Source: Nitrospirota bacterium
GTDB taxonomy: Bacteria > Nitrospirota > UBA9217
Reading direction: 5' to 3'
DNA: 16,514 bases
Assembly (NCBI GenBank): GCA_029858565.1
Contig: JAOUEV010000067.1
Coordinates: forward strand, 1 to 16,514
The notes under the pieces are model-generated. The model did no database searches, was not told the DNA's origin, and worked only from the letters and a program-made list of their open reading frames with translations. Positions 1 through 14,903 of the stretch are shown piece after piece. The translations under genes were made by a program, and so were the position numbers. The stretch's first letter is position 1, and each line of letters opens with the position of its first letter.

Positions 1-30
1 CAGAGCTGTTAACTCTGTGCTCTCTGTGGT
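1..30. repeat. Right part of a REP-like inverted repeat (CAGAG-ctgttaa-CTCTGTGCTCTCTGTGG), left arm truncated by the window edge
   Basis: CAGAG (1-5) pairs with CTCTG (13-17). The arm has a 9-nt period (CTCTGTG at 13 and 22). It sits just 3' of the thyX stop. Confidence 0.5.
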
Positions 31-764
31 TAATTATTCTTTTTCACTCCGTACTTCTTCCTGACCTCTTCGATCTTGCCGCAGGTCATCTTGCCTTCGG
101 GACAGGGATTGTGCAGACATCCCGGTCCGGACTTGCCGAAGATCGTGGGCGCCGCGGCCTTTACCAGGTTCAGCATCTTCTCGGACATATCCCGGATCTC
201 CCACTGCGCCCGGTTGCAGCAGCGCACGCGGAAGAAGTGCAAGAGCTCCCGCGCGTTCATGGTGACCACGATCTTGGTCTCCGCCGCGTTCGGGAGGATG
301 TACCGGGCGTCCTGGTTCCCGTTCTCGCCCTTGATGCCCCGTTCTTCGAGCCCTTTCAGTATGGCCGTGTACCGCGCCTGCGCATCGGCCATGAACTGCT
401 CGAAAGCTTTCCTGCTTTCGGGATCCTGCTTGATCGTCGGAGGGATGATGTAATCAAAGGATTCTTCCCTCACGTAGCGCTGGCTCTGCTGCGAGTACGA
501 TGCCACCCGGTGGCGCACCAGCTGGTGCGAACAGGCCCGGGAGATGCCCTCGATCCCGAAGGTGAAGGACACATGCTCGATCGGAGACAGGTGACCCATG
601 GTGGCCAGCTTCTCCACGAATGCGGTCTGGTCCTTTGCCTCGATCTTGTCCTTTAATTCCTCCACGTTCGCCGGGCTGTAGCAGAGTTTCGCGGCCATGG
701 CCACGACCTCTTCCGGCTCGGGAGTGTGCCGAAGGAGAACAACGTTCAGTGATGCTTCTGGCAT
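30..764 (-). CDS. thyX: FAD-dependent thymidylate synthase
   Basis: ThyX signature RHRxxSxxxxSxR (QLVRHRVASYSQQSQRY), plus GHLSPIEH, DARYILP, MNARELLHF and RCCNRAQWEIR. Confidence 0.97.
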   Translation of the reverse strand: MPEASLNVVLLRHTPEPEEVVAMAAKLCYSPANVEELKDKIEAKDQTAFVEKLATMGHLSPIEHVSFTFGIEGISRACSHQLVRHRVASYSQQSQRYVREESFDYIIPPTIKQDPESRKAFEQFMADAQARYTAILKGLEERGIKGENGNQDARYILPNAAETKIVVTMNARELLHFFRVRCCNRAQWEIRDMSEKMLNLVKAAAPTIFGKSGPGCLHNPCPEGKMTCGKIEEVRKKYGVKKNN

Positions 765-833
765 GCATCGACCCCTTTCGGCCCCCTTAACTATCGAGAA
801 TCAGGATATAAGTCCTCGATTATAAGGAAGCTC

Positions 834-863
834 ATTATATGGAGAAGCTGTTTTTCGAGTCAA
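834..863 (-). promoter_or_regulatory. sigma70-type promoter for thyX
   Basis: Minus strand reads TTGACT (863-858)-N18-TATAAT (839-834), about 70 nt upstream of the ATG. Confidence 0.7.
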
Positions 864-920
864 GAGTAAATACATATGGTAACAGTCATTTTTTTTAATG
901 AAAATATAAGTTTCGCTCAT

Positions 921-955
921 AAAAGCAACGCCTCTGCTACTTTTCGTAGCAGAGG
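921..955 (-). terminator. Probable intrinsic terminator of panB
   Basis: Perfect 10-bp stem CCTCTGCTAC (931-940)/GTAGCAGAGG (946-955) with a 5-nt loop, followed on the minus strand by CGTTGCTTTT. Confidence 0.65.
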
Positions 956-994
956 TAGGCTCTTGATGGTTTCCAGCATGGACCTCTGACCTAA

Positions 995-1795
995 CTACTT
1001 GAAACTATGCTCATCAGAGGGAAATGTTCCGGATTCGACTTCCTTCTTATACTCCTGCACAGCAGCAAGTGCCTGCTCCCTCAGCTTCGCATACTTCTTC
1101 ACGAACTTTGGCGTGAACCTGTCGAAAAGACCCAGAAGGTCGTGGATGACGAGCACCTGGCCGTCGCAGGAGGGTCCCGCACCGATGCCGATGGTCGGTA
1201 TCCTGAGCATGGCAGTGATCTCTTTTCCGAGCGATGCGGGCACGCCCTCAATAACGACCGAGAAAGCTCCCGCATCCTGGACCGCTTTGGCGTCGGCAAG
1301 CAGCTTTTCCCGGGCCGCATCACCCTTGCCCTGCACTTTGAATCCGCCGAGCATGTGCTGATACTGCGGGGTCAGTCCAATATGGGCCACCACGGGAATG
1401 CCGGCGTTCACGATCGCCCGGATCACTTCCGCCATCTGGCTGCCGCCTTCGAGCTTCACCGACTCGGCGCCGCCCTCTTTCAGGAACCTGCCCGCGTTCC
1501 GGACCGCATCCTCTAAGCTCGTCTGATAGGACAGGAAGGGCATGTCCCCGACGACCATGCTTGTCTTCGCTGCCCGGGACACCATGCGAGTATGGTAGAT
1601 CATCTCGTCCATGGTCACCGGGATGGTGCTGTCCAGTCCCTGCACCACCATGCCGAGCGAATCGCCCACAAGGATCATGTCAATGCCTGCCTGGTCCACC
1701 AGCTGGGCAAAGGGAAAATCATAGGCCGTGAGCATAGAGATCTTCTTGCCCTCGGTTTTTTTCTTGTAGAGGTCGAGAATAGTGATCTTAGGCAT
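995..1795 (-). CDS. panB: 3-methyl-2-oxobutanoate (ketopantoate) hydroxymethyltransferase
   Basis: Motifs [42 protein letters not shown] and DGQVLV; 266 aa. Confidence 0.98.
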
Positions 1796-1847
1796 GGGTT
1801 TGATCTCGAATAGGGAGGAGATGCCGGGATCCTGTCCCGGAGTGCAT

Positions 1848-1853
1848 ATTATA
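1848..1853 (-). promoter_or_regulatory. Candidate -10 element for panB
   Basis: TATAAT on the minus strand about 53 nt upstream of the panB ATG. No convincing -35. Confidence 0.4.
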
Positions 1854-2040
1854 CTCCAAGTGGTCCAGTCATTTCCATTGCCATGATAAAAAAACCACGT
1901 CCCAGCGAGCGGGGAGAATGCTGCTCAAGTCGACGAGTTTCACATTCTCGCAACTGATCGTAATCGTGGAAGAAACAGGAAAAATCAGTAAGTCAAGCTC
2001 GATCCTCAACAGTCCCGCAAGCACATTCAGACATCACTTT

Positions 2041-2451
2041 TTATCCGAAGGGATTGATGACCTCAAGACCCGGATAGTAAAAGTCCCTGGCATTTCTTGT
2101 CACCAGCGCCAGATCATGATGCAATGCGGTCGCTGCAAGAAGACTGTCGATCGTGGGGACAGGGCGGCAGGCCTCGGCAAGCAGCCTGCCCCACCGGTCC
2201 GCGACAGCGAGGTCCACCGGAAGCACCCGCCCCTCGAACCAGCGCGGAAGCTCGTGATCGAGCCAGAGCCTCAGTTTCTCCCGGCGTTTCCTGTCCGCGA
2301 CCGCCTCGATGCCCTTCCGGATTTCCCCAAGCGTTAGCACGCTTACAAAGACTGACTCTGCGGGGAGTTGTTCGAGCCACGCGAGCGCCGTCTTATTGGG
2401 CGTTCGTCGGATGGTTTCGGACACAACGTTGGTGTCGAGCAGATAGCTCAT
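2041..2451 (-). CDS. vapC: Type II TA toxin, VapC/PIN-domain ribonuclease
   Basis: PIN acidic motifs YLLDTNVVSE, TLGEI, IDSLLAATA and LVTRNARDF; 136 aa; ATGA overlap with the upstream antitoxin. Confidence 0.93.
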   Translation of the reverse strand: MSYLLDTNVVSETIRRTPNKTALAWLEQLPAESVFVSVLTLGEIRKGIEAVADRKRREKLRLWLDHELPRWFEGRVLPVDLAVADRWGRLLAEACRPVPTIDSLLAATALHHDLALVTRNARDFYYPGLEVINPFG

Positions 2452-2699
2452 GCGATATCAGCCTCGCGCGTATGCGTCTGCTCGCGCCCGAGCTTAAGGT
2501 CAACGCCGAACAGCGGCGAACTGCGCATGAACTCGACAAAGCTTTTCTTCGGGCGCTTCAGCCGCTCATACTCCCCGCTCGAAAGGACGACGACGCTCGG
2601 CTGCCCGTGGACCGTGATACTCTGCGGGCCTTCCTTCTTCGCTTTCTTGATGACCTCGCTCAGGCGGGCCTTTGCTTCCTGAAGCTGCCACGTGTTCAT
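2448..2699 (-). CDS. Type II TA antitoxin, Phd/YefM family
   Basis: N-terminus WQLQEAKARLSEVI...GPQSITVHG..VVVLS..EYERL is typical of Phd/YefM. SD GGGAGG is present. 83 aa, coupled to the PIN toxin. Confidence 0.92.
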   Translation of the reverse strand: MNTWQLQEAKARLSEVIKKAKKEGPQSITVHGQPSVVVLSSGEYERLKRPKKSFVEFMRSSPLFGVDLKLGREQTHTREADIA

Positions 2700-2711
2700 A
2701 TGGCCTCCCTA

Positions 2712-2760
2712 TCTGGTCAGTCTGGTCAGAATTATAGCACCCGAGGAACCGGGCTGTAAA
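2712..2760 (-). promoter_or_regulatory. TA operon promoter with a tandem direct-repeat operator candidate
   Basis: Minus strand reads TTTACA (2760-2755)-N18-TATAAT (2736-2731) with an extended -10 TG. It is followed by CTGACCAGA x2 (2729-2712) over the expected +1, then the SD. Confidence 0.7.
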
Positions 2761-2909
2761 GACAATTATTGAAAGATCCCCTATAGGTATATTGGCGCAA
2801 ATAGAATTCCAACAGTATGAACCTGACCCCATGATGTTCCGGAACAAATAAAAAGGTTAAGAAATCAAGCCTAAAGTTTATTTTTATCCGGGCTTATCTG
2901 AGCTATCCC

Positions 2910-3332
2910 CTATGACTCTTTGTTGTTATCAGTCTTACGCATTTCGGCCAGTTGGCCTATGAAATTTAAGCCTTCTTCATCCCAAGAATCATGAGTAGGA
3001 TCCAGTTCCCGGCTAATAAAGAGAATCAAATTAGTATCAATAAAGACTGACTTCTCTTTTTCAAAATGAATTCTCAGTATTGTTATCAAGCCATTATATT
3101 TAATTTGAATCTGAAGTCTTTTGTCGTTAATATTGAACCTTAGTTTCTTGTACTGAATCCACCAGGCATCATTTATTACATAAAAGGCAACCTTTTTCCC
3201 GAACAAAAAACTTTTTACGAAACCGGTCGACGTACTAGATTCACCATCTTTCTCCCGCACAACACGACACTGACCATCATCAACGTTGAAATCGTAGACT
3301 TTCGCAAAACGATCCCACGAGTGTAGATACAT
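2910..3332 (-). CDS. AT-rich orphan hypothetical protein (140 aa from ATG 3332), possibly an immunity-type protein
   Basis: Open frame in a visibly AT-rich tract. GGAGA SD lies a few nt before ATG 3332, preferred over the ORF-track start at 3362. Acidic C-terminal motif LDPTHDSWDEEGLNF. No recognised family. Confidence 0.65.
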   Translation of the reverse strand: MYLHSWDRFAKVYDFNVDDGQCRVVREKDGESSTSTGFVKSFLFGKKVAFYVINDAWWIQYKKLRFNINDKRLQIQIKYNGLITILRIHFEKEKSVFIDTNLILFISRELDPTHDSWDEEGLNFIGQLAEMRKTDNNKES

Positions 3333-3420
3333 ATGATTCTCCCAAGGTAATGTTCTCAGCAAATCAAGTAGGCTAGCCTGCCCTAATAGATGCTTTCTCG
3401 TTGTTGGAAGCTCTGCAATA

Positions 3421-3447
3421 ACAAAAAGGCGAGGTTTCCCCCGCCTT
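3421..3447 (-). terminator. Intrinsic terminator of the cooC-metVF operon
   Basis: Minus strand AAGGCGGGG-GAAA-CCTCGCCTT-TTTGT: a 9-bp stem (one G-U), a GNRA tetraloop and a U tract, about 56 nt after the metF stop. Confidence 0.85.
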
Positions 3448-3468
3448 GTGTATGCTTTTTATTTTTCA

Positions 3469-3499
3469 AATCCGCATTCCGCAATCCGAAATCCGCAAT
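3469..3499. repeat. Heptamer tandem repeat (AATCCGC)x4
   Basis: AATCCGC ATTCCGC AATCCGA AATCCGC AAT, directly 3' of metF. Confidence 0.85.
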
Positions 3500-3503
3500 T
3501 GAA

Positions 3504-4475
3504 TCACACTTCCGGTCTCGGATACAGCCCTGCTGCCTTCACGATCCCTTCGATCGCGCTCTCCCACTCGATGGCCTGAATGTGCACGCCTTTGACCCCC
3601 GGCGTCTCGAGCGCCTGGTGGATCAGCTCGATCGTGATCTTGATGCCCTCCTGCTCCTGTAGTTCGCGCATCTTCTTCTTGTCTTCGCCCGCGGCCGACT
3701 TGGCTTTGTTCATGCGGTCGATCATCTCTTTGGGCACGGACACGCCCGCTACCGAGGAATCCATGTACTTAAGCATCATGGCGCTCTTCGGCACAATGAT
3801 ACCAGCTAAAATAGCGGTCTTTTCATGGAGGCCCATGTTCCGGATCTTCTCCATCTGCTTGCGGAAGAGCGACATGTCGTAGATGCCCTGGGTCTGGATA
3901 AAATCCGCGCCGGCGTTCACCTTCTTCATGAGGTTGATGGGCCGGAAATCGATGGGATCGCCCATGGGCGTCCATGATGCGCCGATGAAGAACTTGGGTG
4001 CAACTTCGAGCGGATCACCGCCTTCCTGCTTGCTCTCATCGCGCATCTTCTTGAGCATGCCCACAAGCTGGCAGGTATCGAGATCATAGACGTTCTTGGC
4101 TCCGGGGTGACCTTTGAGCTTGCCGGCTGCGCTGAACTTCTGGTGGTCGCCGGCAAGGCAGAGGCAGTTCTTGAGCCCCAGGGCTGCCGCGCCCAACAGG
4201 TCGGCCTGCATGGCGATGCGGTTCCGGTCGCGGCAGGTCATCTGCATCACCGGCTCGAGCCCGTTCTGGAACGCGATGGCTGCAGCCGCGATCGAGGATA
4301 TGCGCACCACCGCGGTCTGGCAGTCGGTGATATTCGCCGCGTCGCAGAATCCCTTCAGCAGTTTCGCCTTGTGCACCACTTCGTGGGGATCGGCGCTCAT
4401 GGGCGGGCCGAGCTCGGCAGTTACCGCGGGCTTGCCGCTGGCGAGTACTTTTTCAAGAGTGCTTCCGCTTTTCAT
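3504..4475 (-). CDS. metF: 5,10-methylenetetrahydrofolate reductase, MetF subunit (MetVF type)
   Basis: Motifs VTAELGPP, ANITD, MQMTCRDRNRIAMQADLLGA, LCLAGDH, KVNAGADFIQTQ and GVHIQA. Adjacent to metV. SD GGAGG. Confidence 0.95.
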   Translation of the reverse strand: MKSGSTLEKVLASGKPAVTAELGPPMSADPHEVVHKAKLLKGFCDAANITDCQTAVVRISSIAAAAIAFQNGLEPVMQMTCRDRNRIAMQADLLGAAALGLKNCLCLAGDHQKFSAAGKLKGHPGAKNVYDLDTCQLVGMLKKMRDESKQEGGDPLEVAPKFFIGASWTPMGDPIDFRPINLMKKVNAGADFIQTQGIYDMSLFRKQMEKIRNMGLHEKTAILAGIIVPKSAMMLKYMDSSVAGVSVPKEMIDRMNKAKSAAGEDKKKMRELQEQEGIKITIELIHQALETPGVKGVHIQAIEWESAIEGIVKAAGLYPRPEV

Positions 4476-4514
4476 CTATCTTTACCTCCACAAGGTTATC
4501 AAGAACAGGAATTA

Positions 4515-4594
4515 GACACTGAGGACACTGACAAGACTTATGAGGAACCCCTATTTGAACTCTTTTTCATAGGCTCTTCTGAGTCATCAGTGTC
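4515..4594. repeat. Imperfect ~29-bp inverted repeat (REP-like) between metV and metF
   Basis: GACACTGAGGACACTGACAAGACTTATGA (4515-4543) aligns with the reverse complement of 4567-4594, GACACTGATGACTCAGAAGAGCCTATGA. The arms have an internal 9-nt period. Confidence 0.7.
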
Positions 4595-4609
4595 GAAAAT
4601 CGTTTTGAT

Positions 4610-5317
4610 TTATTTTCCTGCTTTCGCTTCTTCTTTCTCTTCGAACTCCCGGATATGCTCCAGCGAAATGCGGCGCGGCCCGCCGTCGCGGGAGGTTGCC
4701 CAGTTCCGGGGCGGCAGCACCGTGCCGAGTTTGTCGAGCTGGCCAAGCTTGGTCATGCGCTCCACGATCAGGTACCATGCGCAGTCGATCTCGTTCGAGA
4801 CCTCGCACTTGCCCTTGTTCGTGCCCCCGCAGGGACCGTTCATAAGCGTCTTGGCGCAGCGCGCGATCGGGCAGATGCCGCCGGTCAGATGCAGGATGCA
4901 GTCCCCGCACCCCGCGCAAAGCTCCTTGAACACGCCGGGAGCCTCGACAGCTCCGTAGAAGGACGTATTGATGCCCGGCACCACCGGCACCGTTCCGGTG
5001 CGGTCGGACAGGAAGTTCACTCCCACGCCGCAGGCAGTCGAAACCACCATGTCGTACTTCTTCACGTCCTCGATGACATTGTCGAAGTACTCGGGCTCGC
5101 AGTGGCGCATCACGCCCATATGGCTGACCTCCATCTGCTTGCCTTCCTGGGACGCCTTCATGCGAAGAAGCGAGGCGATGGTCTCAGCCTCCTTTTCGCC
5201 TCCTGCATGACAGATAGCAACACAGGTGTTGCACCCGAACACGAGGACCTTCTTCTTGTCCTTGTCCTTGACCATGTTCCATATTTCATCAATGGGTTTT
5301 TGTGATCCGACGATCAT
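4610..5317 (-). CDS. metV: MetV, Fe-S/Zn subunit of methylene-THF reductase (MTHFR_C domain)
   Basis: GCNTCVAICHAGG, RHCE and TACGVGV, plus the MTHFR_C Cys pattern CAGCGDC..GGICPIARCAK..NGPCGG...GKCEV...DCAW. Lies directly upstream of metF. Confidence 0.92.
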   Translation of the reverse strand: MIVGSQKPIDEIWNMVKDKDKKKVLVFGCNTCVAICHAGGEKEAETIASLLRMKASQEGKQMEVSHMGVMRHCEPEYFDNVIEDVKKYDMVVSTACGVGVNFLSDRTGTVPVVPGINTSFYGAVEAPGVFKELCAGCGDCILHLTGGICPIARCAKTLMNGPCGGTNKGKCEVSNEIDCAWYLIVERMTKLGQLDKLGTVLPPRNWATSRDGGPRRISLEHIREFEEKEEAKAGK

Positions 5318-5359
5318 GGCAATGCTCCTTTATCATTCCCCCGTCTGCAAAAGGGGTGT

Positions 5360-7432
5360 TTACTTTACTCTCAAGCCCATCTTCTTCACCAGTTCCGAGA
5401 ACTCTCCGCATGATGACGCTGCGGGCAGGATCCCGATACGGTCAGGTTCCATGCCAAGGGTCTTGATCAGTTCCTGGCCGCGCTTCACCCGCGCCTGCAC
5501 GCGAGGCTCGATCTTCTCGTATTTGCAGTTCCTGTCCCCGCACCGCACGACCGCGACGCCGTCCGCCCCGGTTTCAAAGGCCCTCAGCATATCCAGCACA
5601 TCGACCCGGCTGGTGCAGTGCACGGGGAAGGGCCGGTAATTCTTTGGCAGGTCGGCGCCATGGACGCCCAGGCGGTTCGTGCAGACAAAAGCCACAATGA
5701 GGGGCTCGGTCCGTTTCGAGTCCACGCAGCCCACGGTCGTTGTCATGGACCCGCGGATCTCCTTCACATCATAGCTCACCATGCTTATTGCCTGGGCCGG
5801 ACACTCCGGGGCGCAGAGGCCGCAGGCCTGGCAATAATCCGGCCGAATCTCGGACCAGGCCTTCACCACCGGCGCTCCGTAGGGGCAGACGCGCAGGCAG
5901 GTGAGGCAGGCCATGCACTTGTTCGGATCCACCACCGCGCCGCCGCCGCAGCCGCGGCACCGGGAGGCCTCGGCCAGCGCCTCTTTCTCGGTGTAGGTCT
6001 TCTCGAAATTGTCCATTGTCTTGACGCGCACCGCGGGCTCCACATGGTGCACCTTCTGGCGCGGCATCTTGCAGATCTTCTCAAGCACATCCTTGGGCAT
6101 CTCGTTGATGCTGTCCTTTTCCTGGACCGGCAGCTTGCCCTCGATGGTTTCGCCCTGAAGGAAAAGATGCATTGCCAGCGCTGCGCGGTGGCCGCTCGCC
6201 ACGGCCGCGATCGCCGAGCCAGGACCGGTCACGACCTCGCCTGCAACAAAGACGTTCTTCGCACTGCTCTTCTGCGTCTTCTGGTCCCACTCCACGCGTC
6301 CCCGCTCATCAGCCTTGACGCTGCTGTCCTTGAGCGGAGCGAGGTTCGCCATCTGGCCGATGGTGATGATGATCGTGTCCGCCTCAAGCAGCGTCGTCAC
6401 GTTGTTGTCAAAGGTAGGCGCGAATCGCTTGTTGCCGTCGAACACCGACAGGACCTTGGTCACTTCCAGACCCAGGACCTTGTCGCCGTCCCGCTTGACC
6501 GCCTTGGGCCCCCAGCGGTAATTGATCTTGACCGCTTCCTCCACTGCCTCGTCCACTTCCCACTTCCATGCCGGTATCTCCTGCTCGTTCTCAAGGCAGA
6601 CCATCTCGACCTTCTCCACGCCGAGCCTCCGGGCGCTCCGCGCAACATCCATGGCCACATTCCCGCCGCCGATCACGAGCACCTTCTTGCCGAGCTTGGG
6701 GTCGCGGCCGAATGCAACATCCTCCAGAAAGGGGATGGCGAGCAGCACGTTCGGTCCGTCAACACCCGGAATGTTCAGCGACCGGCTCAGAGAGAGTCCG
6801 ATGGCGAGCAGGATCGCGTCGTGCTTTTTCGCCAGATCGTCGAGCTTGGCGTCCTTCCCGACCTCGAACCCGGTCTTGACCTCGATGCCGCGGCTGACCA
6901 CGTCATCGATGTCCTCTTTCAGCACCTCGCGGGGCAGCCGGTAGGGAGGAATGGCGGTGGAAAGCATGCCGCCGAGCACCGGATGGCGCTCGTAGAGCGT
7001 GACGCTGTATCCCAGGTCCGCCATGTCGCGCGCAGCGGTCAGGCCCGACGGTCCGGACCCGATGATGCCCACGCTCTTGCCCTTGTTCTGTGCCACAAGT
7101 TTGCGCTTATTGCGGCGGTATTCCTTTGCCTGCTCGATCGCGAACCGCTTCAGCGGCCGCACCGCGACCGCTTCGTCGATGCCGCACCTGCGGCAGGACC
7201 GTTCGCAGGGATGGTGGCAGATCATCGAACAGACCGAAGCGATCGGATTCGGCGCGGTGATCACCTCGAAAGCCTCGGTGTACCGGCCCTGGGCGATCAG
7301 GCCCACATAGGCCTGGACATCAGTATGCGCCGGGCATGCCGCGCGGCACGGCGAGTAGGGCCGGGTTTCCTTGATCTCGGCGCCGTAAGGCCGGTAGGGT
7401 TGTGTCAGATCACAGGTATCTTGAGCAGCCAT
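5360..7432 (-). CDS. Multidomain FAD/NAD(P)H oxidoreductase: GltD/Nfn-large-like module + 2x[4Fe-4S] ferredoxin domain + C-terminal MvhD/FlpD domain
   Basis: aa29-80 PCRAACP...CSMICHHPCERSC; FAD motif IIGSGPSG; nucleotide motif VIGGGNVAMD; EASRCRGC (aa488-495); CMACLTCLRVCP and CQACGLCAPECP; MvhD-like IVAFVC...VHCTSRVD..MLRAFETGADGV..VRCGDRNCKY (C584, C606, C631, C636). Confidence 0.9.
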   Translation of the reverse strand: MAAQDTCDLTQPYRPYGAEIKETRPYSPCRAACPAHTDVQAYVGLIAQGRYTEAFEVITAPNPIASVCSMICHHPCERSCRRCGIDEAVAVRPLKRFAIEQAKEYRRNKRKLVAQNKGKSVGIIGSGPSGLTAARDMADLGYSVTLYERHPVLGGMLSTAIPPYRLPREVLKEDIDDVVSRGIEVKTGFEVGKDAKLDDLAKKHDAILLAIGLSLSRSLNIPGVDGPNVLLAIPFLEDVAFGRDPKLGKKVLVIGGGNVAMDVARSARRLGVEKVEMVCLENEQEIPAWKWEVDEAVEEAVKINYRWGPKAVKRDGDKVLGLEVTKVLSVFDGNKRFAPTFDNNVTTLLEADTIIITIGQMANLAPLKDSSVKADERGRVEWDQKTQKSSAKNVFVAGEVVTGPGSAIAAVASGHRAALAMHLFLQGETIEGKLPVQEKDSINEMPKDVLEKICKMPRQKVHHVEPAVRVKTMDNFEKTYTEKEALAEASRCRGCGGGAVVDPNKCMACLTCLRVCPYGAPVVKAWSEIRPDYCQACGLCAPECPAQAISMVSYDVKEIRGSMTTTVGCVDSKRTEPLIVAFVCTNRLGVHGADLPKNYRPFPVHCTSRVDVLDMLRAFETGADGVAVVRCGDRNCKYEKIEPRVQARVKRGQELIKTLGMEPDRIGILPAASSCGEFSELVKKMGLRVK

Positions 7433-7496
7433 GCATCACTCCTGCACTACAAAATGAAATTTCACACCAGATCCGAATGCGGTCTGTAGTGTCGTG

Positions 7497-9005
7497 TTAA
7501 TCCTTCGGCAAGAGACCGCGCCCTGATCCGCCATCATCGGTCCTGATCTTAAAAAACGCGACGGCCTCCTGAAGTTCTTTTCCCTGCATGGCGAGCTGTT
7601 CCGCAAGGGTCGATGTTTCCCCGGCGGTCCCCGCGTTCATCTGGATCGCCTGGTTCAACTGCTGAATAGCGCCGTTGATCTGTTCGGCCCCGGACAACTG
7701 CTCCTTCGAGGCGGCGCTGATCTCCTGCACCAGCTCCGCGGTCCGCTGAATATCCGGGACCAGCCTGTCGATCATGATTCCCGCCTGTTCGGAGATCTGC
7801 AGGGTGGCGGCCGACCTCGCAGTGATCTCCGCAGCCGCGGCCTGGCTGCGTTCGGCAAGCTTGCGCACTTCCGCCGCGACAACAGAGAATCCCTTTCCCT
7901 GCTCGCCGGCACGGGCCGCCTCGATCGCCGCGTTCAGGGCTAGCAGGTTCGTCTGGCGGGCGATCTCCTCGATGATCGATATCTTCGCAGTGATGTCCTT
8001 CATCGCGGCGACCGCATCGGACACGGCCTTGCCGCTCTCCCGGGCGTCCCGGGCGCCCTGCAGCGCGATCTTCTCGGTCTGGTAGGCGTTATCGGCGTTC
8101 TGCCTGATCGTGGCGTTCATCTCCTCCACGGCCGCCGATGCCTCCTCAGCCGAAGCAGCCTGCTCGCTGGTGCTCTGGGACATTTGGGCCGCGCCACCCG
8201 ATATTTCGCTGCTTCCCTGCGCAACAGTGTCCGAGACAGCTTTGACGCTTGCGACGACCTCCGACATCCTCGCGACCATGCTGTTCAGCATGGCAGCCAA
8301 CACGCCGATCTCATCCTGCCGGTCCAGGGAGATGGCAACGGTCAGATCTCCCTCGGAGATGCGCTGCGCCGTATGCGACAGCCTCCGGACAGGATCGGAA
8401 ATGCCCTTGCCCACGAAGAGGAACACGAGCGCCAGCGCGACCAGCAGCGCAAGGCTGCCCGAGGCCAGTGACCAAAGGAGCATGCTCCGCACCTGTCGGT
8501 TGACAGCTGATGACTTGAGCGCGATGCGGATTATGCCGATGCGCTTCTTGTCGGCATCCATCAGAGGAATGACCTTTTCGTACACACTGCCGCTGCCAAG
8601 GGCATAGGAATGCAGCAGCGGTTCGGCCGCCGACAGCGCGCGCTTCGCAGGATCGTCGCCGAGGACCCGGTTCTCATCGGACACCGCGCTGGAATAGAGC
8701 ACCTTGCCGCCCAAGTCCATGACCATGGCGTGGGCCAGGTCCTCGTTTTGCTCGGTCAAAGCGCGGAATTTTTCTCCAATGCCGCCCAGACCGTCCAGCG
8801 GGATCCCGAATCCCAGGGATTTATCAATGTCCTTCTTGACCCCTTCGACGACCGTCGTCACCCGGTCAATGAGCGCTTCCCGGTAGCGCCCTGCAGCGGA
8901 ATAGGTAATGAAGAATGTGTTGAGGCTCAGCGCCAGGAACAGGACACCGGCTGTCGCCAGTACTGCTTTTGTCTTTAAGGTCATACGGGAAAACATGACT
9001 ATCAC
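7497..9005 (-). CDS. Methyl-accepting chemotaxis protein (2 TM, extracytoplasmic Cache-like domain, HAMP, signalling domain)
   Basis: Two hydrophobic helices flank a ~150-aa sensor. HAMP (ISDPVRRL...GDLT...DEIGVLA). Hairpin tip [40 protein letters not shown]. Start uncertain (GTG 9005 or ATG 8996). Confidence 0.95.
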
Positions 9006-9049
9006 TTGCCTGCGATGCTCCTGCCGTTGTTTTGGCGATACCGCAACCG

Positions 9050-9613
9050 TTATTCCCTCTTGCCCAGGAGCTCGAGCATTTCCATGCGCGTGGATTCCTT
9101 GGTACGGAAGATGCCGCGCACCGCCGACGTGACCACCCGGGAACCCGGCTTTTTCACGCCGCGCATGCTCATACAGAGGTGTTCCGCGTCGATCACGACC
9201 ATCGCGCCCTTGGGCTTCAGGCTCGACACGATCAGGTCGGCGAACTGGGTCGTGAGCCGCTCCTGCACCTGGGGCCGCTTTGCAAACACCTCAAGCGCCT
9301 TGGCAAGGGAGCTTATGCCGACGATCTTGCCGGCGCCGGGAATATAGGCGATGTGCGCCTTGCCGAAAAAGGGGACAAGATGGTGTTCGCACACCGAGTA
9401 GAACGCAATATCCCGGATCATCACCATCTCATCGTGCGTCTCGCCCGCTATGGGGACCAGCAGTTTTTCCGTGTCCGCTGCAATGCCGGAGAATATCTCT
9501 CCATACATCTCGGCCACGCGCTGCGGCGTGCTCTTGAGTCCGGGACGCTCCGCGTTCTCGCCGATCCCTTCAATGATCAGGCGAACGCCTTTTTCGATCT
9601 TCTTAATATCCAT
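9050..9613 (-). CDS. folE: GTP cyclohydrolase I
   Basis: Motifs [31 protein letters not shown] and [11 protein letters not shown] (Zn ligands intact). Confidence 0.97.
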
Positions 9614-9700
9614 GATCAGCCTTTATCACTGGATGCGCTGGAAATGACCGTCATGCAGTGAGCAAGCGCTTCCGCTTTTTTCATCCTGTGATCTCTATGT

Positions 9701-10255
9701 TCATTTGTTTACCACTAAGACCCGGTTTTCCGTCACGATCCTCTTGACCGGGATGTCATGATCATCAACAGGCACCGACGGCAGGACCTGGAGCTCGAAT
9801 GCCAGAGCGACGGTCGGACCGGAGTAAGCCGGGAGCAGCCGGTCGTAGTACCCCGCTCCATATCCGACGCGGTTTCCCTGTTCATCGAACACCGCTCCGG
9901 GCACCACGATCAGGCCAATGTCCGCAAGCGGGACCGGTGTCCCGCGCTCCGGTTCGGGGATCCCCCACGCGCCGGGCAGCATGTCTTTATCGAAGTTCGC
10001 GATCTCAAGCAGTACCAGTTCCTTACCCTTCACCTTCGGCAGGACGACCCGCTTGCCCTCGGCAAGAGCGCGCCGGATCATGAAGTGGGTCTCCACTTCG
10101 CTCTGAAACGATGCAAAGAACAGTACCACCGCTGCTGCCTCGAACTCCGGCAGGCTGAACAGCCGCTGCTCGATCGCCCTGCTCCGCGCCCTCCGCTCCT
10201 CAGGCGTCAGCGCAAAGCGCTCGTCGAGCACCTTCTTCCGTATCGCGCTCTTCAC
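9701..10255 (-). CDS. fau: 5-formyltetrahydrofolate cyclo-ligase (Fau/YgfA family)
   Basis: K..IR N-terminus, SEVET, VVLPKV, WGIPEP, IVVPGAVFD..GNRVGYGAGYYDRLL and HDIPV..IVTE. GTG start overlaps the cooC stop (GTGA). Confidence 0.93.
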   Translation of the reverse strand: MKSAIRKKVLDERFALTPEERRARSRAIEQRLFSLPEFEAAAVVLFFASFQSEVETHFMIRRALAEGKRVVLPKVKGKELVLLEIANFDKDMLPGAWGIPEPERGTPVPLADIGLIVVPGAVFDEQGNRVGYGAGYYDRLLPAYSGPTVALAFELQVLPSVPVDDHDIPVKRIVTENRVLVVNK

Positions 10256-11034
10256 TTCTTTTGTATCATCTGGTCCAGCGCGGCCTTGATGACCTTCGCC
10301 TCGTCGACCGCCGCGGGAGCGGCATCGAAGGCGGACCTGCCATCCAGATCAGCCTGTACCGTATCCGCGGAGAACCGCATGTATCCCAGGACCTGCATGT
10401 CTCCCAGGTTCTTTTCGATGAATGCCTTGTCCGTATCCCGCTGGATCTTGTTCCCGACCACGAATACCTGCTTGACGCCGAGCCCCTTCGCCAGGTTCTC
10501 CACATGGTGCGCTGTCTGCAGGCTCCGCTGACCGGGCTCAACGACCACGATAAAGGCATCCACGCTGCCCGCGGTACCGCGCGTCAGGTGCTCGATCCCC
10601 GCTTCCATATCCAGGATCACCACTTCATTACTGCGCAGAATAAGATGGCTGATCAGCCGTCGCAGCAGCACATGTTCGGGGCAGTAGCAGCCCGCTGCAG
10701 CTTCCTTGGACTTTCCCATGATCAACAGGCGGACACCGTCCCGCCGGATGCTGTACTTTTCCGGAATATCGTCGACCTTCGGATTGATCCGGAACATGCC
10801 GCCCGGTGCGCCCGGCCGGGAACCGGTCCGCTCCTCGATCATATCGGTCTGTTCGGCAAGCGGCAGCGCCTTTGCCGCTTCTTCCGGCGATATTCCGAGC
10901 GACGATGCCAGATTAGCATCAGGATCCGCGTCGACAGCCAGGACCGTGCGGCCCTCGGCAGCATAGAGACGCGCCAGAAGGCCGGCAAGTGTTGTTTTTC
11001 CAACACCTCCCTTGCCGGTAATCGCGATTTTCAC
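10252..11034 (-). CDS. cooC: CO dehydrogenase/ACS nickel-insertion ATPase (CooC/AcsF family)
   Basis: Deviant Walker A GKGGVGKTT, DADPDANL, Ni-binding CxC (GCYCPE) and DMEAGIEHLTRGT. GTG start with SD AAGGAG. Confidence 0.92.
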   Translation of the reverse strand: MKIAITGKGGVGKTTLAGLLARLYAAEGRTVLAVDADPDANLASSLGISPEEAAKALPLAEQTDMIEERTGSRPGAPGGMFRINPKVDDIPEKYSIRRDGVRLLIMGKSKEAAAGCYCPEHVLLRRLISHLILRSNEVVILDMEAGIEHLTRGTAGSVDAFIVVVEPGQRSLQTAHHVENLAKGLGVKQVFVVGNKIQRDTDKAFIEKNLGDMQVLGYMRFSADTVQADLDGRSAFDAAPAAVDEAKVIKAALDQMIQKK

Positions 11035-11063
11035 GGCAAAATCTCCTTAAATTCAGGTTGGGC

Positions 11064-11093
11064 AACATAGCATCTGAAAAGCAAAAGAGTCAA
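11064..11093 (-). promoter_or_regulatory. sigma70-type promoter of the cooC-fau-folE-mcp-oxidoreductase-metVF operon
   Basis: Minus strand reads TTGACT (11093-11088)-N18-TATGTT (11069-11064) with an extended -10 TG and an AT-rich tract upstream. Confidence 0.55.
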
Positions 11094-11223
11094 GGATTTT
11101 TTGTTATGTTTATTTTCATCGTGGTTACGGTTCGTAACGCGCAACCTTGTCTCCAGTGACATTTTTTCTAGTGCTCTAATGCGGGAACAAGGGCATGGTT
11201 TCCGCCTGAAATGATCGACGCAC

Positions 11224-11256
11224 AAAAAAAAGGGAATGGCTTGGTTGCCATTCCCT
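11224..11256 (-). terminator. Intrinsic terminator after the receiver-protein pair
   Basis: Perfect 10-bp stem AGGGAATGGC (11231-11240)/GCCATTCCCT (11247-11256), followed on the minus strand by a long T run. Confidence 0.9.
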
Positions 11257-11287
11257 GTCCCGTACTATCCGACGGACCTGGTGTCCC

Positions 11288-11665
11288 CTATGTAGCAGAT
11301 TCAAAGAGCTTAGCTATCAGCGCGTGCAGATCGCTCGGCTGAAAAGGCTTCTTCACATAACCGTTCGCACCGATGGCAAGACCGCGCTCCGTGTCCTCCT
11401 CCTTGCCTTCGGTACTGACAATGATGATCGGGATCTTGTCGAACTTGCCAAGAGCCTTTACTTTCTGGATGAACTCAAGCCCGTTCATGAGCGGCATGTT
11501 GATATCCACAAGCATAAGGTCCACATCTGCGTTCTGTTCCAGCTTATCCAGCGCTTCCTGACCATTCAAGGCATCAACAACCTTGCACCGGTAACGCATC
11601 AGCACCATTTTATACATCTGGTGGATCAGCGCTGAATCGTCCACAACCAGAACTTTCTTGAGCAT
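11288..11665 (-). CDS. Single-domain response regulator (CheY-like)
   Basis: VLVVDD, phospho-Asp in LVDINMP, IIVST and YVKKPF; 125 aa; SD AGGAGG. Confidence 0.93.
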   Translation of the reverse strand: MLKKVLVVDDSALIHQMYKMVLMRYRCKVVDALNGQEALDKLEQNADVDLMLVDINMPLMNGLEFIQKVKALGKFDKIPIIIVSTEGKEEDTERGLAIGANGYVKKPFQPSDLHALIAKLFESAT

Positions 11666-11713
11666 GGTCCCCTCCTGCTGCCTGCGCGTGCAAATCAGAT
11701 AACAACGATCCCG

Positions 11714-12109
11714 TCATTTTTCTACCGGGATTCCCAGTTCCTGGATCTTCCGCATCAACACTTTGATATCAACTGGCTTTGTATAGTATGCCACAGCACC
11801 CCGTGCATAGGTATCCTGCTCCACCTCTTCAGAACCATGTGCCGTCATAATGATGACCGGGGTGTCCGGCCAGTACCGTTTGATATAGGATAGGATCTCA
11901 AGTCCCTCGACGCCCAGCATGCCGGACATGCGTATGTCGGCGATGACCGCGTCGAAGCGGTGTCGTTTCAAGGCATCTTCCGCGGTCTCGAGCCTTCCCG
12001 CCGTTGATATTTCCACGCCCGTGGCACGCAATGCGTAGGACAATGTGAGCAGGATCGTCGGCTCATCATCAACGATCAGGATACGTTTTAACCCCGAACC
12101 ATCGTTCAT
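11714..12109 (-). CDS. Single-domain response regulator
   Basis: ILIVDDE, IADIRMSGMLGVEGL (short insertion after the phospho-Asp), IIMTAHG and YYTKPVD; 131 aa. Confidence 0.9.
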   Translation of the reverse strand: MNDGSGLKRILIVDDEPTILLTLSYALRATGVEISTAGRLETAEDALKRHRFDAVIADIRMSGMLGVEGLEILSYIKRYWPDTPVIIMTAHGSEEVEQDTYARGAVAYYTKPVDIKVLMRKIQELGIPVEK

Positions 12110-12154
12110 ACAAGATGCGTAATGCCCCCGAGGGACCTTTTCGAAAACATTTCA

Positions 12155-12163
12155 ATTATACCA
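12155..12163 (-). promoter_or_regulatory. Extended -10 promoter candidate for the receiver pair
   Basis: Minus strand TGGTATAAT about 46 nt upstream of ATG 12109. Confidence 0.5.
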
Positions 12164-12248
12164 AAAAATCAAACCGTTACCAGCATTCTTTTAATGAAGG
12201 CGCATGAGGGCATTGCAGACTCATATCCGATCCGGCCAGGGGTCCGGC

Positions 12249-12277
12249 TTGCATTTGGAGAACAAAGATGCTAATGT
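12249..12277 (+). promoter_or_regulatory. Candidate rlmN promoter
   Basis: TTGCAT (12249-12254)-N17-TAATGT (12272-12277) with an extended -10 TG. Confidence 0.45.
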
Positions 12278-12284
12278 GCCCAGG

Positions 12285-13337
12285 ATGGGTCCCGCAAGCA
12301 TTCTCCCGAACATCAAATCCCCTGGAGCCGAAGGTCTGGCGCCGCTCCTGATGGAGCATGGCTTCCCTCGCTACCGCGCCGGCCAGATCCTGCAATGGAT
12401 CTACCAGCACCACGCCGCGCGATTTGATGAGATGACCAATATTGCCAAGCCGGACCGTGCCCGCCTTGCCTCGCTCTTTTCGATCCTTTCGCTCGATCCG
12501 ATCCGTGTGGAACGTTCAACCGATGGGACCAGAAAGTTCCTGTTCCGCCTTGAGGACGACCATGCTGTCGAGAGCGTTCTGATCCCTGATGAGGAACGGA
12601 TGACGCTCTGCATCTCCTCCCAGGTCGGGTGCCGACAAGCATGCCGGTTCTGCCTCACCGGGAGCAGCGGATTCCTCCGGGACCTCCACGGTTGGGAGAT
12701 CGCCGATCAGGTCCTGCAGATCGCCCGTGTGCTCCGAAAGGAAGGCGACCGGACGATCACGAACATCGTGCTCATGGGCATGGGCGAACCGCTGGACAAC
12801 TATGACGAGGTCATCGCGGCGCTGAAGATCATTACCGCTGCCGACGGGCTCGGCCTCTCTCCCCGGAGGATCACGCTGTCGACTGCCGGCCTTGCTCCGC
12901 AGATCGTCCAGCTTGGGGCATCGGGCAACAGGGTGAACCTTGCTATCTCGCTCAACGCGCCAAACGATGCCGTCCGGGACCGCATCATGCCGGTGAACCG
13001 GCGGCATCCGCTGAAAGAACTGCTCGCGGCATGCAAAAAATATCCGCTGGACCCTCGCCGACGGATCACTTTTGAATACGTGCTGTTAAAGGGCGTGAAC
13101 GATTCCGAGGATGATGCCGTCGCCGTTGCACGGCTGCTCAAGGGCATCCGCTGCAAGATCAACCTCATCCCCTTCAATCCCTTTCCCGGCGCCCCCTTCG
13201 AGCGGCCGGATGATTCAACGGTCCGGCGCTTTCAGAACATCCTGCTTGACCGTCACTACACCGCGCCGGTCCGTGAGTCCCGGGGGCGGGATATATCAGC
13301 AGCCTGTGGGCAGTTGCGCGAGCGGATCTCCGGATAG
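12285..13337 (+). CDS. rlmN: 23S rRNA (A2503-C2)/tRNA methyltransferase, radical SAM
   Basis: TLCISSQVGCRQACRFC (CxxxCxxC), MGMGEPL, ISLNA, ITFEYVLL.GVND, NLIPFNP and RGRDISAACGQL. Start placed at ATG 12285 because the extension to 12204 does not look like RlmN. Confidence 0.95.
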   Translation: MGPASILPNIKSPGAEGLAPLLMEHGFPRYRAGQILQWIYQHHAARFDEMTNIAKPDRARLASLFSILSLDPIRVERSTDGTRKFLFRLEDDHAVESVLIPDEERMTLCISSQVGCRQACRFCLTGSSGFLRDLHGWEIADQVLQIARVLRKEGDRTITNIVLMGMGEPLDNYDEVIAALKIITAADGLGLSPRRITLSTAGLAPQIVQLGASGNRVNLAISLNAPNDAVRDRIMPVNRRHPLKELLAACKKYPLDPRRRITFEYVLLKGVNDSEDDAVAVARLLKGIRCKINLIPFNPFPGAPFERPDDSTVRRFQNILLDRHYTAPVRESRGRDISAACGQLRERISG

Positions 13338-13442
13338 ATCCAGCAGCAGCACGTCCACCCGGGAAACCTTTGCTGATTCGGCCCTTCCCCCCACTTCACA
13401 CTGCACATTCCAAAGAACTTCCGGAAAAGCGGCAGCACCACA

Positions 13443-13461
13443 ACCGGTCTCGAAGACCGGT
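13443..13461. terminator. Hairpin between the convergent rlmN and cheY-like genes
   Basis: ACCGGTCT-cga-AGACCGGT, a perfect 8-bp inverted repeat. No clear U tract on either strand. Confidence 0.4.
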
Positions 13462-13487
13462 GCCCTGCAGTCCCGATGTTAAAAGGA

Positions 13488-13868
13488 TTACTTCTTCCCT
13501 TCAAGGATCTGGGTTACGACATTCAGGAGATCGGCGGTCTGGATGGGTTTCGCGATATATGCGTTCGCCCCGAGCGAGAGTCCGCGCTTGCGGTCCTCAT
13601 CGGCGCCTTCGGTGGTGATGATGATTATGGGAATGGCTTTGTTCACGGGATCGTTCCGAACCATCGAGACAAGCTTCAGACCATCCATGATCGGCATGTT
13701 GATGTCCGTCAGGATCACATCGAATTTCTGGGTCGAAAGCTTCTTGAGCGCGTCGATGCCGTCATTTGCCTCGACGACCTTGCTTCCCGGAATGCGTTTG
13801 AGCGCGAACGTGATGAGCTGACGCATCGTGGGAGAATCTTCAACCACCAGAAAATTATGCTCCGGCAT
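13488..13868 (-). CDS. cheY: CheY-like single-domain response regulator of the che operon
   Basis: FLVVEDS, ILTDINMP, IIITTEG and YIAKPI. Last gene of the cheR-cheB-GAF run. Confidence 0.85.
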   Translation of the reverse strand: MPEHNFLVVEDSPTMRQLITFALKRIPGSKVVEANDGIDALKKLSTQKFDVILTDINMPIMDGLKLVSMVRNDPVNKAIPIIIITTEGADEDRKRGLSLGANAYIAKPIQTADLLNVVTQILEGKK

Positions 13869-13877
13869 TCCGTCCCC

Positions 13878-14702
13878 CTATTTCTCTTTCAGCAGATCAA
13901 GGAAGCTCTGGATAGTGGACAACTTGCGCTCTGATTGCGAATAGAGCTTTGAAGAGAAGAGCGCGGTCGCAGCATGTCCGGCGAGCATGGAAAAGAGCTC
14001 GTAGTCCATGTTCGAGAAGGCGGTTTTCTGGACCAGGAGCTTGTAGATAACGATCGATCCGATCACATGCTCCTTGATCTTGAGGGGAATGCAGACCAGC
14101 GGGTGGGAGTAGTCCACACCCTTCAGGTCGGTTGGATCGCCTTCCCGGTAGAAAGCCTCACCGGATTTGATGACCGTACCGATAATGCCCTCGCCGATCT
14201 TGATGGGATCATGCATTTCAGGCCCCATCCCCTCCTGGGCGACCACAATAAGATCATTGGTCTTCTCATCAAGCATCATGATGGAGAACTCCTCGGCGCC
14301 GATGAGGTTCATCACGATCTCGAGGATGATCTTGAGGGACTCATTGAAATCAAGGGTTGAATGAAGCTGATAGCTGGCTACGTAAAGGTTCGCCAGATTG
14401 TTGTTCTCCGACTCGACCTCGACGTAGCGGCTGGCAAAATCCTTGTTCTCTTCCTCGACCTGACGATACCGTTCGAGCAGGCTCTTGTTCTCTTCCTCAA
14501 GGAACTGGATCCGCTCCTCCATGGAGTGCACCTTGAAGTTCCCCTCCCGGTCCGAGAACTTGGAAACTTCCTCGAGCTGGGCAAGCCGGTAGCGAAGCTT
14601 CTCGTTCTCCCGAAGAATCTCCTGGGTGAATTCCTCTCCCTTTTTAAAGACCTGGAGGAATTCCTCCACCTTCTTGTTCAGGGATCCGGTTTCCTTGTCC
14701 AT
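13878..14702 (-). CDS. Coiled-coil + GAF domain protein with no output domain (274 aa)
   Basis: Strong SD AAGGAGG before ATG 14702 (MDKET...), preferred over 14777. N-terminal heptads. GAF hallmarks LHSTLDF, IGEGIIG.V..SGE, LVCIPLK, F...DYELFSMLA.HAATAL. Confidence 0.88.
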   Translation of the reverse strand: MDKETGSLNKKVEEFLQVFKKGEEFTQEILRENEKLRYRLAQLEEVSKFSDREGNFKVHSMEERIQFLEEENKSLLERYRQVEEENKDFASRYVEVESENNNLANLYVASYQLHSTLDFNESLKIILEIVMNLIGAEEFSIMMLDEKTNDLIVVAQEGMGPEMHDPIKIGEGIIGTVIKSGEAFYREGDPTDLKGVDYSHPLVCIPLKIKEHVIGSIVIYKLLVQKTAFSNMDYELFSMLAGHAATALFSSKLYSQSERKLSTIQSFLDLLKEK

Positions 14703-14815
14703 CCTGTCCTCCTTGTACGCCGGTTCGTGACCGTACCCGCACCGGCGAGAATCCAGCCGGACGCGTCCTTGCATCAACGTGGCATATTCGGTCCACCGAG
14801 CACCGAATAACGACC

Positions 14816-14844
14816 ATTATAGACGAGACGTTGTAATTTATCAA
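14816..14844 (-). promoter_or_regulatory. Internal sigma70 promoter for GAF-cheY
   Basis: Minus strand reads TTGATA (14844-14839)-N17-TATAAT (14821-14816), near consensus, within the 200-nt gap after cheB. Confidence 0.75.
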
Positions 14845-14903
14845 GCCCATTGTGGTTTGCAAAACTGCCTGCACGATGGTGCCAGCAGTCCCTGAAACCG
14901 GGA

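Follow-up and report, generated by a model that had tools for sequence, protein, structure and literature searches.

How is a methylene-tetrahydrofolate (methylene-THF) reductase of the MetVF kind supplied with electrons when neither of its known partners is encoded beside it? MetF and MetV are described as having no NADH site; type III reductases add RnfC2 for NADH, type IV reductases add HdrCBA-MvhD, and of the four types listed, the plain MetVF type is argued to have an electron donor that is still unknown (PMC8760232). The question is raised by a stretch of 16,514 nucleotides (nt) from a Nitrospirota bacterium (assembly GCA_029858565.1, contig JAOUEV010000067.1, positions 1 to 16,514), hereafter the window, to whose full length all coordinates refer. 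On its minus strand, metV and metF follow a gene for a protein of 690 amino acids (aa) in which a flavoprotein head, a ferredoxin domain and an MvhD domain are fused (5360..7432). Judged from sequence and gene neighborhood, this fusion protein is very likely the partner of MetVF, and the three proteins would probably make up a three-subunit, soluble, linear NADH:methylene-THF oxidoreductase of the Wood-Ljungdahl pathway.

The fusion gene, delimited from its open reading frame (ORF) and from Pfam and NCBIfam matches, ends 42 nt ahead of metV, as a first-pass annotation made from the sequence had stated. metV (4610..5317, minus strand) encodes a 235-aa reductase iron-sulfur subunit, recognized by PF12225 (DUF5981; residues 114-206, 2.8e-35 in Pfam) and containing 14 invariant Cys columns in its family alignment (A2). 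After a gap of 134 nt, metF (3504..4475, minus strand) encodes the 323-aa catalytic subunit of methylene-THF reductase (PF02219, MTHFR; residues 7-316, 2.4e-36 in Pfam). Shine-Dalgarno-like AGGAG or GGAGG motifs were found upstream of all three start codons, with AAGGAG preceding the ATG of metV and GGAGG that of metF. A terminator-like hairpin of 9 pairs (6 G-C) followed by a T run (3426..3447, minus strand) lies 57 nt past the metF stop codon; it is the only minus-strand site of its kind within 3200-7800, in agreement with the earlier proposal that the fusion gene shares the metF terminator, though the both-strand count of five in this interval is not above that of shuffled sequences (3.8 +/- 1.9). 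A sigma-70 promoter scan of 3200-7800 found none, and an Rfam scan of the window returned no family above threshold, so no riboswitch was found ahead of the operon.

As the first-pass annotation had also claimed, hdrB/hdrC, an HdrA core and rnfC2 are absent from the operon: Pfam detected none of them in the window, and the gene upstream encodes a chemotaxis receptor. Specifically, the window contains no hdrB/CCG ORF, no NuoE/F-like gene and no Complex1_51K protein, and with one DUF5981 match genome-wide there is no RnfC2 of the MetV-domain type. Nor does the operon include an NfnA-like gene, the search for NfnA being limited to the operon. The host genome, rated 100% complete, yielded a single MTHFR match and a single DUF5981 match, both in the fusion-metV-metF operon. 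FlpD domains occur twice genome-wide, in the fusion protein and in a QmoB-like protein beside sat/apr-like genes, and CCG (HdrB-type) domains were restricted to two ORFs, on contigs C85 and C132, that are unlinked to metVF. Because the genome is complete and has one MTHFR, one DUF5981 and no other FlpD or CCG domain near metF, the fusion protein is the only candidate partner.

Genes for acetyl-CoA synthase, the corrinoid protein and the methyltransferase are clustered on contig C7, together with NuoF-like and formate-dehydrogenase-like genes. The operon thus holds the sole MetVF of a Wood-Ljungdahl host, and no Hdr or RnfC2 partner is found alongside it. A cluster on contig C134 encodes ATP sulfurylase, an FAD protein, two HdrA-like proteins (one of them FlpD-ended), an Fe-S protein and a proton pyrophosphatase; we take this to be sat-apr-qmoABC and the host, presumably, to be a sulfate reducer. 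The formate-dehydrogenase-like gene on contig C7 (L006:2443-5184, G000:C7) neighbors the acetyl-CoA synthase cluster and a NuoF-like gene of 774 aa. Its reading frame is split into two ORFs of 368 and 540 aa, 12 nt apart, which may reflect a selenocysteine TGA.

Adjacency of the fusion gene to metV and metF across genomes, which the first-pass annotation had proposed to tabulate, was assessed in 41 relatives and in 151 genomes sampled across the Nitrospirota phylum by comparing match coordinates of the fusion protein (P0001) with those of PF12225, and twenty regions were re-read. Full-length orthologues were found at 27 loci in 26 Nitrospirota genomes, with 61-100% identity. At 23 of the 27 loci, metV was located downstream on the same strand within 5 kb, being directly adjacent in 16 cases, separated by 0.8-1.1 kb in five, and by 3.0 and 4.3 kb in the remaining two. 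Small inserted ORFs occupy these gaps of 0.8-4.3 kb. Within the phylum sample, MetV was present in all 20 fusion-bearing genomes except G010, which is 90% complete and in which the fusion locus is cut by a contig end.

The same order was also looked for outside the clade of the window. The seed for this metagenome scan was P0125, a representative with 43% identity to the fusion protein and the nearest one not in its 50% cluster; the named members of the P0125 cluster are Spirochaetota. The scan returned 49 loci, of which three (near-)complete fusions with less than 180 nt downstream, 13 N-terminal or internal fragments and 14 other architectures were set aside; in the 19 usable loci, a fusion-type ORF or the C-terminal end of one is followed by 300 nt or more. 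metV was found within 380 nt downstream in all 19, and metF came next in 18, the remaining locus being cut by a contig end. Two of the metagenome loci (L116 and L117) are numerically identical and possibly represent one sequence, and the query used picked up no MvhD part in two others (L134 and L159). One Planctomycetes contig (L016) also shows the fusion-metV order up to the contig end. A scan of contigs with the 45-row family alignment was dominated by generic patterns, and the best 80 of at least 591 candidates, mostly ordinary GltD-like genes, included seven with metV nearby (L016, L021, L027, L052, L066, L074 and L091), figures from which no rate follows. Overall, adjacency of the fusion to metV spans lineages down to 35-43% identity. 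The named members of the family that were encountered all derive from metagenome-assembled genomes. The closest homologues of the fusion protein are named from Nitrospirota and Thermodesulfovibrionia-type bins; same-architecture fusions are also named from Bacillota, Chloroflexota and Actinomycetota, where a link to metV was either not examined or not seen.

Some peculiarities of individual loci were noted. In six relatives (L098-L103; G007, G003, G001, G024, G009 and G006), the ORFs inserted between the fusion gene and metV encode about 100-310 aa, and some of them look toxin-antitoxin-like on sight only. In G014, the orthologue (L106, G014:C1:429500-435500) is read as three ORFs of 370, 174 and 150 aa, and a single in-frame TGA precedes the MvhD part; this may represent selenocysteine at a cluster ligand, or a frameshift. 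A Bathyarchaeia locus (L033) at first taken for a fusion without MetV resolved into separate ORFs for 587 and 251 aa and is not a counter-example.

Relatives that lack the fusion were informative as to what takes its place. In same-family genomes without it (G008, G012, G013, G016, G017 and G019), a stand-alone mvhD lies directly ahead of metV. In G008, G013, G017 and G019, this mvhD is preceded by a gene for HdrA (1018-1080 aa) or for an HdrL-like protein of about 1490 aa, with a CCG (hdrB-type) match further upstream, an arrangement that is the Moorella-type cluster, while G012 and G016 showed just the mvhD-metV pair. The stand-alone mvhD ahead of metV holds one in-frame TGA in several genomes (G008, G012, G016, G017, G019 and G027), which may encode selenocysteine at a cluster ligand. 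HdrL-like proteins, in which a GltD module (about residues 170-670) is followed by an HdrA-like part, were encoded ahead of mvhD-metV at six of the six Nitrospirota loci seen (G013, G063, G082, G094, G140 and G027) as well as on contigs of Bacteroidota, Dehalococcoidia, Anaerolineae and Desulfobaccia (L021, L052, L066 and L091). HdrL of Desulfobacterium autotrophicum, a heterodisulfide reductase/glutamate-synthase fusion (PMC2702500), resembles the 690-aa protein in combining a GltD-like NADH module with Hdr-type parts and MvhD; however, HdrL retains the HdrA core and leaves MvhD as a separate protein, neither of which applies to the 690-aa protein. At the loci examined, the gene directly ahead of metV was mvhD, free or fused, wherever mvhD was detected. 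These arrangements fit a role for MvhD as the adaptor that would dock on MetV, with a flavoprotein in front that varies between relatives.

Further gene sets extend this variety. The HdrL-like proteins ahead of metV measure about 1480-1510 aa (L107:3519-7997 in G013, L021, L052, L066, L091, L136 and L137) and usually have mvhD between, although no MvhD was detected at L137. In Deltaproteobacteria and Dehalococcoidales bins (L027:679-3876 and L074:4779-7901), a protein of 1040-1065 aa that joins NuoE-like [2Fe-2S], NuoF-like FMN and GltD-like parts is encoded directly ahead of metV-metF, with no MvhD. By its domains, this protein resembles a module of the Stn/HydBC type connected to MetVF, and it may be a further type of partner. 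No HdrA lies near the second mvhD-metV-metF sets of G008 (contig C15, L110) and G012 (contig C7, L111), which are located by glutamate-synthase FMN-region genes and an NrpR-type nitrogen regulator. In a FastTree phylogeny of the flavoprotein head (148 rows, many of the 'short' ones being fragments), architecture classes were intermixed, with the fusion label changing 21 times and at least 13 of these changes forced by starred branches; the tree therefore does not show whether the fusion arose when an HdrL-like gene lost its HdrA core.

The domains of the fusion protein and the positions of its cluster ligands can be read directly from its sequence. An N-terminal domain for two [4Fe-4S] clusters (Fer4_20; 7118..7354, minus strand; residues 27-105, Pfam 2e-14) is followed by FAD and NAD(P)H Rossmann domains (Pyr_redox_2; 6191..7075, minus strand; residues 120-414, Pfam 6.6e-35) and by a linker, delimited from alignments, that ends in an invariant R-C-x-x-C motif with C492 and C495 (5948..6040, minus strand; residues 465-495). 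Behind it lies a 2x[4Fe-4S] ferredoxin domain of the HdrA C-terminal type (5759..5938, minus strand; residues 499-558, with two Fer4 stretches at about 500-558), and the chain closes with the MvhD/FlpD domain (5363..5710, minus strand; residues 575-690, with FlpD at 586-686, Pfam 1.4e-20). NCBIfam model positions 572-765 of HdrA2 match residues 499-686 (1.6e-35), whereas the GltD-like NCBIfam model matches residues 25-553 at a level below the model cut-off. Among solved structures, residues 499-562 match the C-terminal ferredoxin part of HdrA chains and residues 575-690 match MvhD chains. Residues 27-545 are most similar to 9bov_A (NfnABC of Caldicellulosiruptor, 8e-89), 9n5u_A (NfnABC of Thermococcus, 2e-85) and 8oh5_C (StnC of Sporomusa, 7e-80), and NfnB proper is matched by 4ylf_B (6e-64 by phmmer, residues 25-428) and 5jca_L (5e-58). 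With 45 family members as input, AlphaFold2 modeled the entire chain at a mean predicted local distance difference test (pLDDT) of 90.7 and a predicted template modeling score (pTM) of 0.89; the top Foldseek matches of the model were again 9bov_A, 8oh5_C and 9n5u_A, with 4ylf_B and 5jca_L at target TM-scores of 0.79-0.82. The NAD(P)H/FAD module and the HdrA-type ferredoxin domain named in the first-pass annotation are borne out by these sequence and fold matches. Databases at present label homologues of the fusion protein 'FAD-dependent oxidoreductase' or 'formate dehydrogenase beta subunit'.

Ligands were assigned by aligning the fusion protein to solved chains and reading the alignments against the ligand lists in PMC7596348 and PMC10482914, and residue conservation was scored over 45 representatives of the family (alignment A1). 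C29 and C33 align with C47 and C51 of Thermotoga maritima NfnB, and C72, C76 and C80 are invariant in the family. The linker segment 465-495 aligns with NfnB residues 12-42, including the distal-cluster ligands C39 and C42; the head is thus circularly permuted relative to NfnB, as are 9bov_A and StnC. The fused ferredoxin domain, in which all eight Cys are invariant (45/45), starts 11 residues past the distal-cluster ligand C495. Of the sixteen Cys that could be assigned to the four [4Fe-4S] sites, all are invariant or almost invariant. The first-pass annotation was likewise correct that the MvhD domain has all four [2Fe-2S] Cys, as each aligns with a Cys of the solved MvhD chain 5odc_D (C584, conserved in 41/45; C606, 36/45; C631, 43/45; C636, 39/45). 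At the proximal cluster, K95, a Lys in 45/45 representatives, aligns with E117 of NfnB and with K170 of StnC, and 9bov_A and 9n5u_A likewise have Lys at this position.

In the model proposed here, NADH would donate a hydride to the FAD of the NfnB/StnC-like head, from which single electrons would pass to the proximal [4Fe-4S] cluster, with K95 probably the fourth ligand beside three Cys out of C33, C68, C72 and C76. They would then move to the distal [4Fe-4S] cluster (C29, C80, C492 and C495), through the two [4Fe-4S] clusters of the fused ferredoxin domain to the [2Fe-2S] cluster of the fused MvhD domain, and from there by way of the MetV clusters to the flavin of MetF, reducing methylene-THF. 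The chain would be linear and non-bifurcating. Whereas the gene order and its conservation are direct observations, what we infer is that the tail contacts MetV, that the clusters follow one another as given here, that NADH is the donor and that no bifurcation takes place, and the model as a whole is drawn from gene order and residue analogies only. NADH has a potential near -320 mV. With methylene-THF at -200 mV (PMC5861303), the reductive direction is downhill from NADH to methylene-THF. The oxidative direction would need pull by later steps, as reported for the Acetobacterium woodii enzyme (PMC8760232), and in a sulfate-reducing host whose pathway oxidizes acetyl-CoA the complex may run in reverse, from methyl-THF to NAD+.

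The nucleotide is more likely NADH than NADPH, because C279-L280-E281 replaces YRR at the site of the NfnB NADP motif (Y310-R311-R312). YRR in NfnB and DsrL-2 goes with NADP(H), and DsrL-1, without YRR, uses NAD(H), the DsrL rule having been measured on three enzymes (PMC7596348). Across the family, residues 279-281 read x-L-E in 34/45 representatives and Y-R-R in 11/45, with no intermediates, while StnC, 9bov_A and 9n5u_A keep YRR. The family therefore probably comprises both NADH and NADPH subtypes.

A linear chain is favored on three grounds: a Lys stands at the ligand position of the proximal cluster, no NfnA-like branch is present, and the clusters can be read in single file. In StnC, K170 is a Lys ligand of the proximal cluster, and its flavin was shown experimentally not to bifurcate (PMC10482914). 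The principal alternative accepts the same three-subunit complex but makes it electron-bifurcating, the NfnB-like FAD splitting the electron pair of NAD(P)H between methylene-THF, reached through MvhD and MetV, and ferredoxin; in reverse, reduced ferredoxin would help to drive methyl-THF oxidation with NAD+ if the sulfate reducer oxidizes acetyl-CoA. Such a role would suit the NfnB fold of the head (4ylf_B and 5jca_L, at the TM-scores above) and R165, which is kept in 45/45 representatives and aligns by residue offset with StnC R239, a residue equated with NfnB R201 in PMC10482914. Moreover, the partner ahead of metV in most fusion-less relatives is of the Hdr type, which is thought to bifurcate, and methylene-THF at -200 mV leaves spare free energy against NADH (PMC5861303). 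However, the operon offers no NfnA-like second branch, and with the ferredoxin domain right behind the distal-cluster CxxC, the clusters can be read as one chain. In addition, PMC7596348 presents DsrL, whose first four domains are the same, as a simple NAD(P)H:acceptor oxidoreductase. On balance, bifurcation by this complex appears unlikely. If true, it would be the more important finding, namely a long-sought energy-coupling form of this Wood-Ljungdahl step in three subunits.

Contact between the fused MvhD tail and MetV, as the linear chain would have it, was also modeled. The first-pass annotation had suggested a complex prediction, which was run three times with MetV (37-row alignment) and fusion residues 485-690 (45-row alignment). 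The runs scored 0.40, 0.41 and 0.44, with contacts that agreed 100% and a partner pLDDT of at least 76, and the overall score of 0.41, against a best control of 0.01, places the pair in the weak class of support. When the method was calibrated, 58 of 80 solved complexes and 2 of 110 mismatched pairs attained the mark; only 7 of the 80 solved complexes, but both of the passing mismatches, did so with scores at or below 0.60. Since no MetV structure was found in the PDB copy searched, the score is not the memory of a solved complex. We regard it as a small addition to a predicted pairing that gene order had already made likely.

Several observations weigh against the fusion protein as a MetVF partner in a linear, NADH-driven chain. 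A MetV/tail score this low is, by the calibration, more often wrong than right unless the pairing is already likely, and the arguments for NADH and for non-bifurcation extrapolate from individual residue positions of StnC, NfnB and DsrL. The relatives compared are kin and not independent samples, and the metagenome loci come without taxonomy. The fusion loci of G010 and G011 are cut by contig ends, and no metV was found in either genome; on a Bacillota contig (L014), no metV follows in the 574 nt past the fusion gene, metV being located on another contig. In G087 and G144, of one genus, the fusion gene (61-63% identical) is unlinked and lies amid unrelated housekeeping genes, and their metVF is instead preceded by HdrA (1008-1014 aa) and MvhD. 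The two partner types thus coexist in these genomes, and the fusion is neither always linked to MetVF nor strictly exclusive with Hdr.

Such unlinked copies would suit a second alternative, in which the fusion protein would act on its own as an NAD(P)H:acceptor oxidoreductase, serving sulfite reduction in the manner of DsrL or some other Fe-S enzyme, and would be a mere neighbor of metVF, which would itself be fed by ferredoxin. Compared by description, the first 560 residues follow the order of DsrL (PMC7596348), namely an N-terminal two-cluster domain, FAD with embedded NAD(P), a linker and 2x[4Fe-4S], and the host is read as a sulfate reducer. Type II MetVF accepts reduced ferredoxin in vitro (PMC8760232), and the MvhD-MetVF sets by glutamate-synthase-like genes (L110 and L111) imply that these modules are used in more than one context. 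Unlike the fusion protein, with its MvhD domain and metVF neighbors, DsrL as presented in PMC7596348 has no MvhD and is defined by its link to dsrAB, the first criterion there being that dsrAB is present in the organism. The alternative is quite improbable given the adjacency at 23 of 27 and 19 of 19 loci in lineages down to 35-43% identity, the position of mvhD, free or fused, directly ahead of metV in Hdr-type loci and in HdrL-type loci with detected mvhD, and the presence of MetV in all fusion-bearing genomes of the phylum sample bar the contig-cut G010. The earlier view of a single polypeptide as the electron-input wire of MetVF thus stands as a hypothesis, backed by the conserved order, the alternative partners in relatives and the lack of another candidate in the genome.

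Compared with the reductases already described, the gene set shares features with types IV and III. Like the type IV HdrCBA-MvhD-MetVF of Moorella thermoacetica (PMC8760232 and PMC5861303), it has a MetVF core with MvhD encoded directly ahead of metV, a ferredoxin domain of the HdrA C-terminal type, and NADH as the proposed donor. Unlike type IV, it has no HdrB/HdrC and no HdrA thioredoxin-reductase-like flavin core; instead, a GltD/NfnB-like head is joined to a fused MvhD, giving three subunits versus six. The type III RnfC2-MetV-MetF of A. woodii likewise has three subunits, one of them extra for NADH, and is reported to be soluble and non-bifurcating, oxidizing NADH with methylene-THF at full rate without ferredoxin, with no ferredoxin being reduced (PMC8760232). 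That complex, however, has FMN, and its RnfC2 carries a MetV-like domain on the N-terminal side of its RnfC domain (PMC8760232), whereas the input subunit here is an unrelated FAD protein with a GltD/NfnB fold and an MvhD tail.

The head itself is closest to the GltD module of the StnC/NfnABC type (8oh5_C, 9bov_A and 9n5u_A), which gave the best sequence and fold matches and, like it, has a Lys at the ligand position of the proximal cluster as well as a permuted CxxC. In contrast to the fusion protein, with its ferredoxin-MvhD tail and C-L-E, StnC has NuoG/FdhF-like domains, HydBC-like StnAB as a partner, YRR and NADPH (PMC10482914). As in NfnB, the GltD/NfnB fold of the head combines FAD, NAD(P)H and two [4Fe-4S] sites; unlike NfnB, it has K95 for the Glu ligand (E117 in T. 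maritima) and no NfnA gene in the operon. The parts are all known (a MetVF core, an MvhD adaptor, a DsrL/StnC-like NAD(P)H module and an HdrA2-like tail) and the combination is new. In the full-text literature searched, which excluded subscription papers and supplements, no description of a GltD-ferredoxin-MvhD fusion with MetVF was found, in agreement with the first-pass annotation, which had not recognized the three-subunit architecture as biochemically described. Such a member is missing from the four-type scheme of PMC8760232, and the gene set would be a fifth type.

For the energetics of the Wood-Ljungdahl pathway, the electron supply of MetVF-type reductases is an unsettled matter, and the classification of these enzymes is actively debated. 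Recurring in Nitrospirota, on one Planctomycetes contig and on many metagenome contigs from a Spirochaetota-named seed cluster, the fusion bears on whether NADH alone drives the methylene-THF step in sulfate reducers and their relatives, and on whether this step conserves energy. A self-contained input subunit should lend itself to expression and study far better than the Hdr form with its six subunits, and metagenome annotation would improve for proteins now labeled as generic oxidoreductases or dehydrogenases.

Other genes of the window were annotated in passing. The chemotaxis receptor gene upstream (7497-9005, minus strand) encodes a methyl-accepting chemotaxis protein with sCache, HAMP and MCP signal domains and ends 64 nt ahead of the fusion gene on the same strand, and CheB, CheR and two response regulators are encoded further up the window. 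The surroundings are rich in folate-related genes, with thyX and panB downstream (on the 30-1795 side) and folE, a 5-formyl-THF cyclo-ligase gene and a gene for a CooC/CbiA-like ATPase upstream (on the 9050-11034 side). A PIN-domain ORF is located at 2041-2451.

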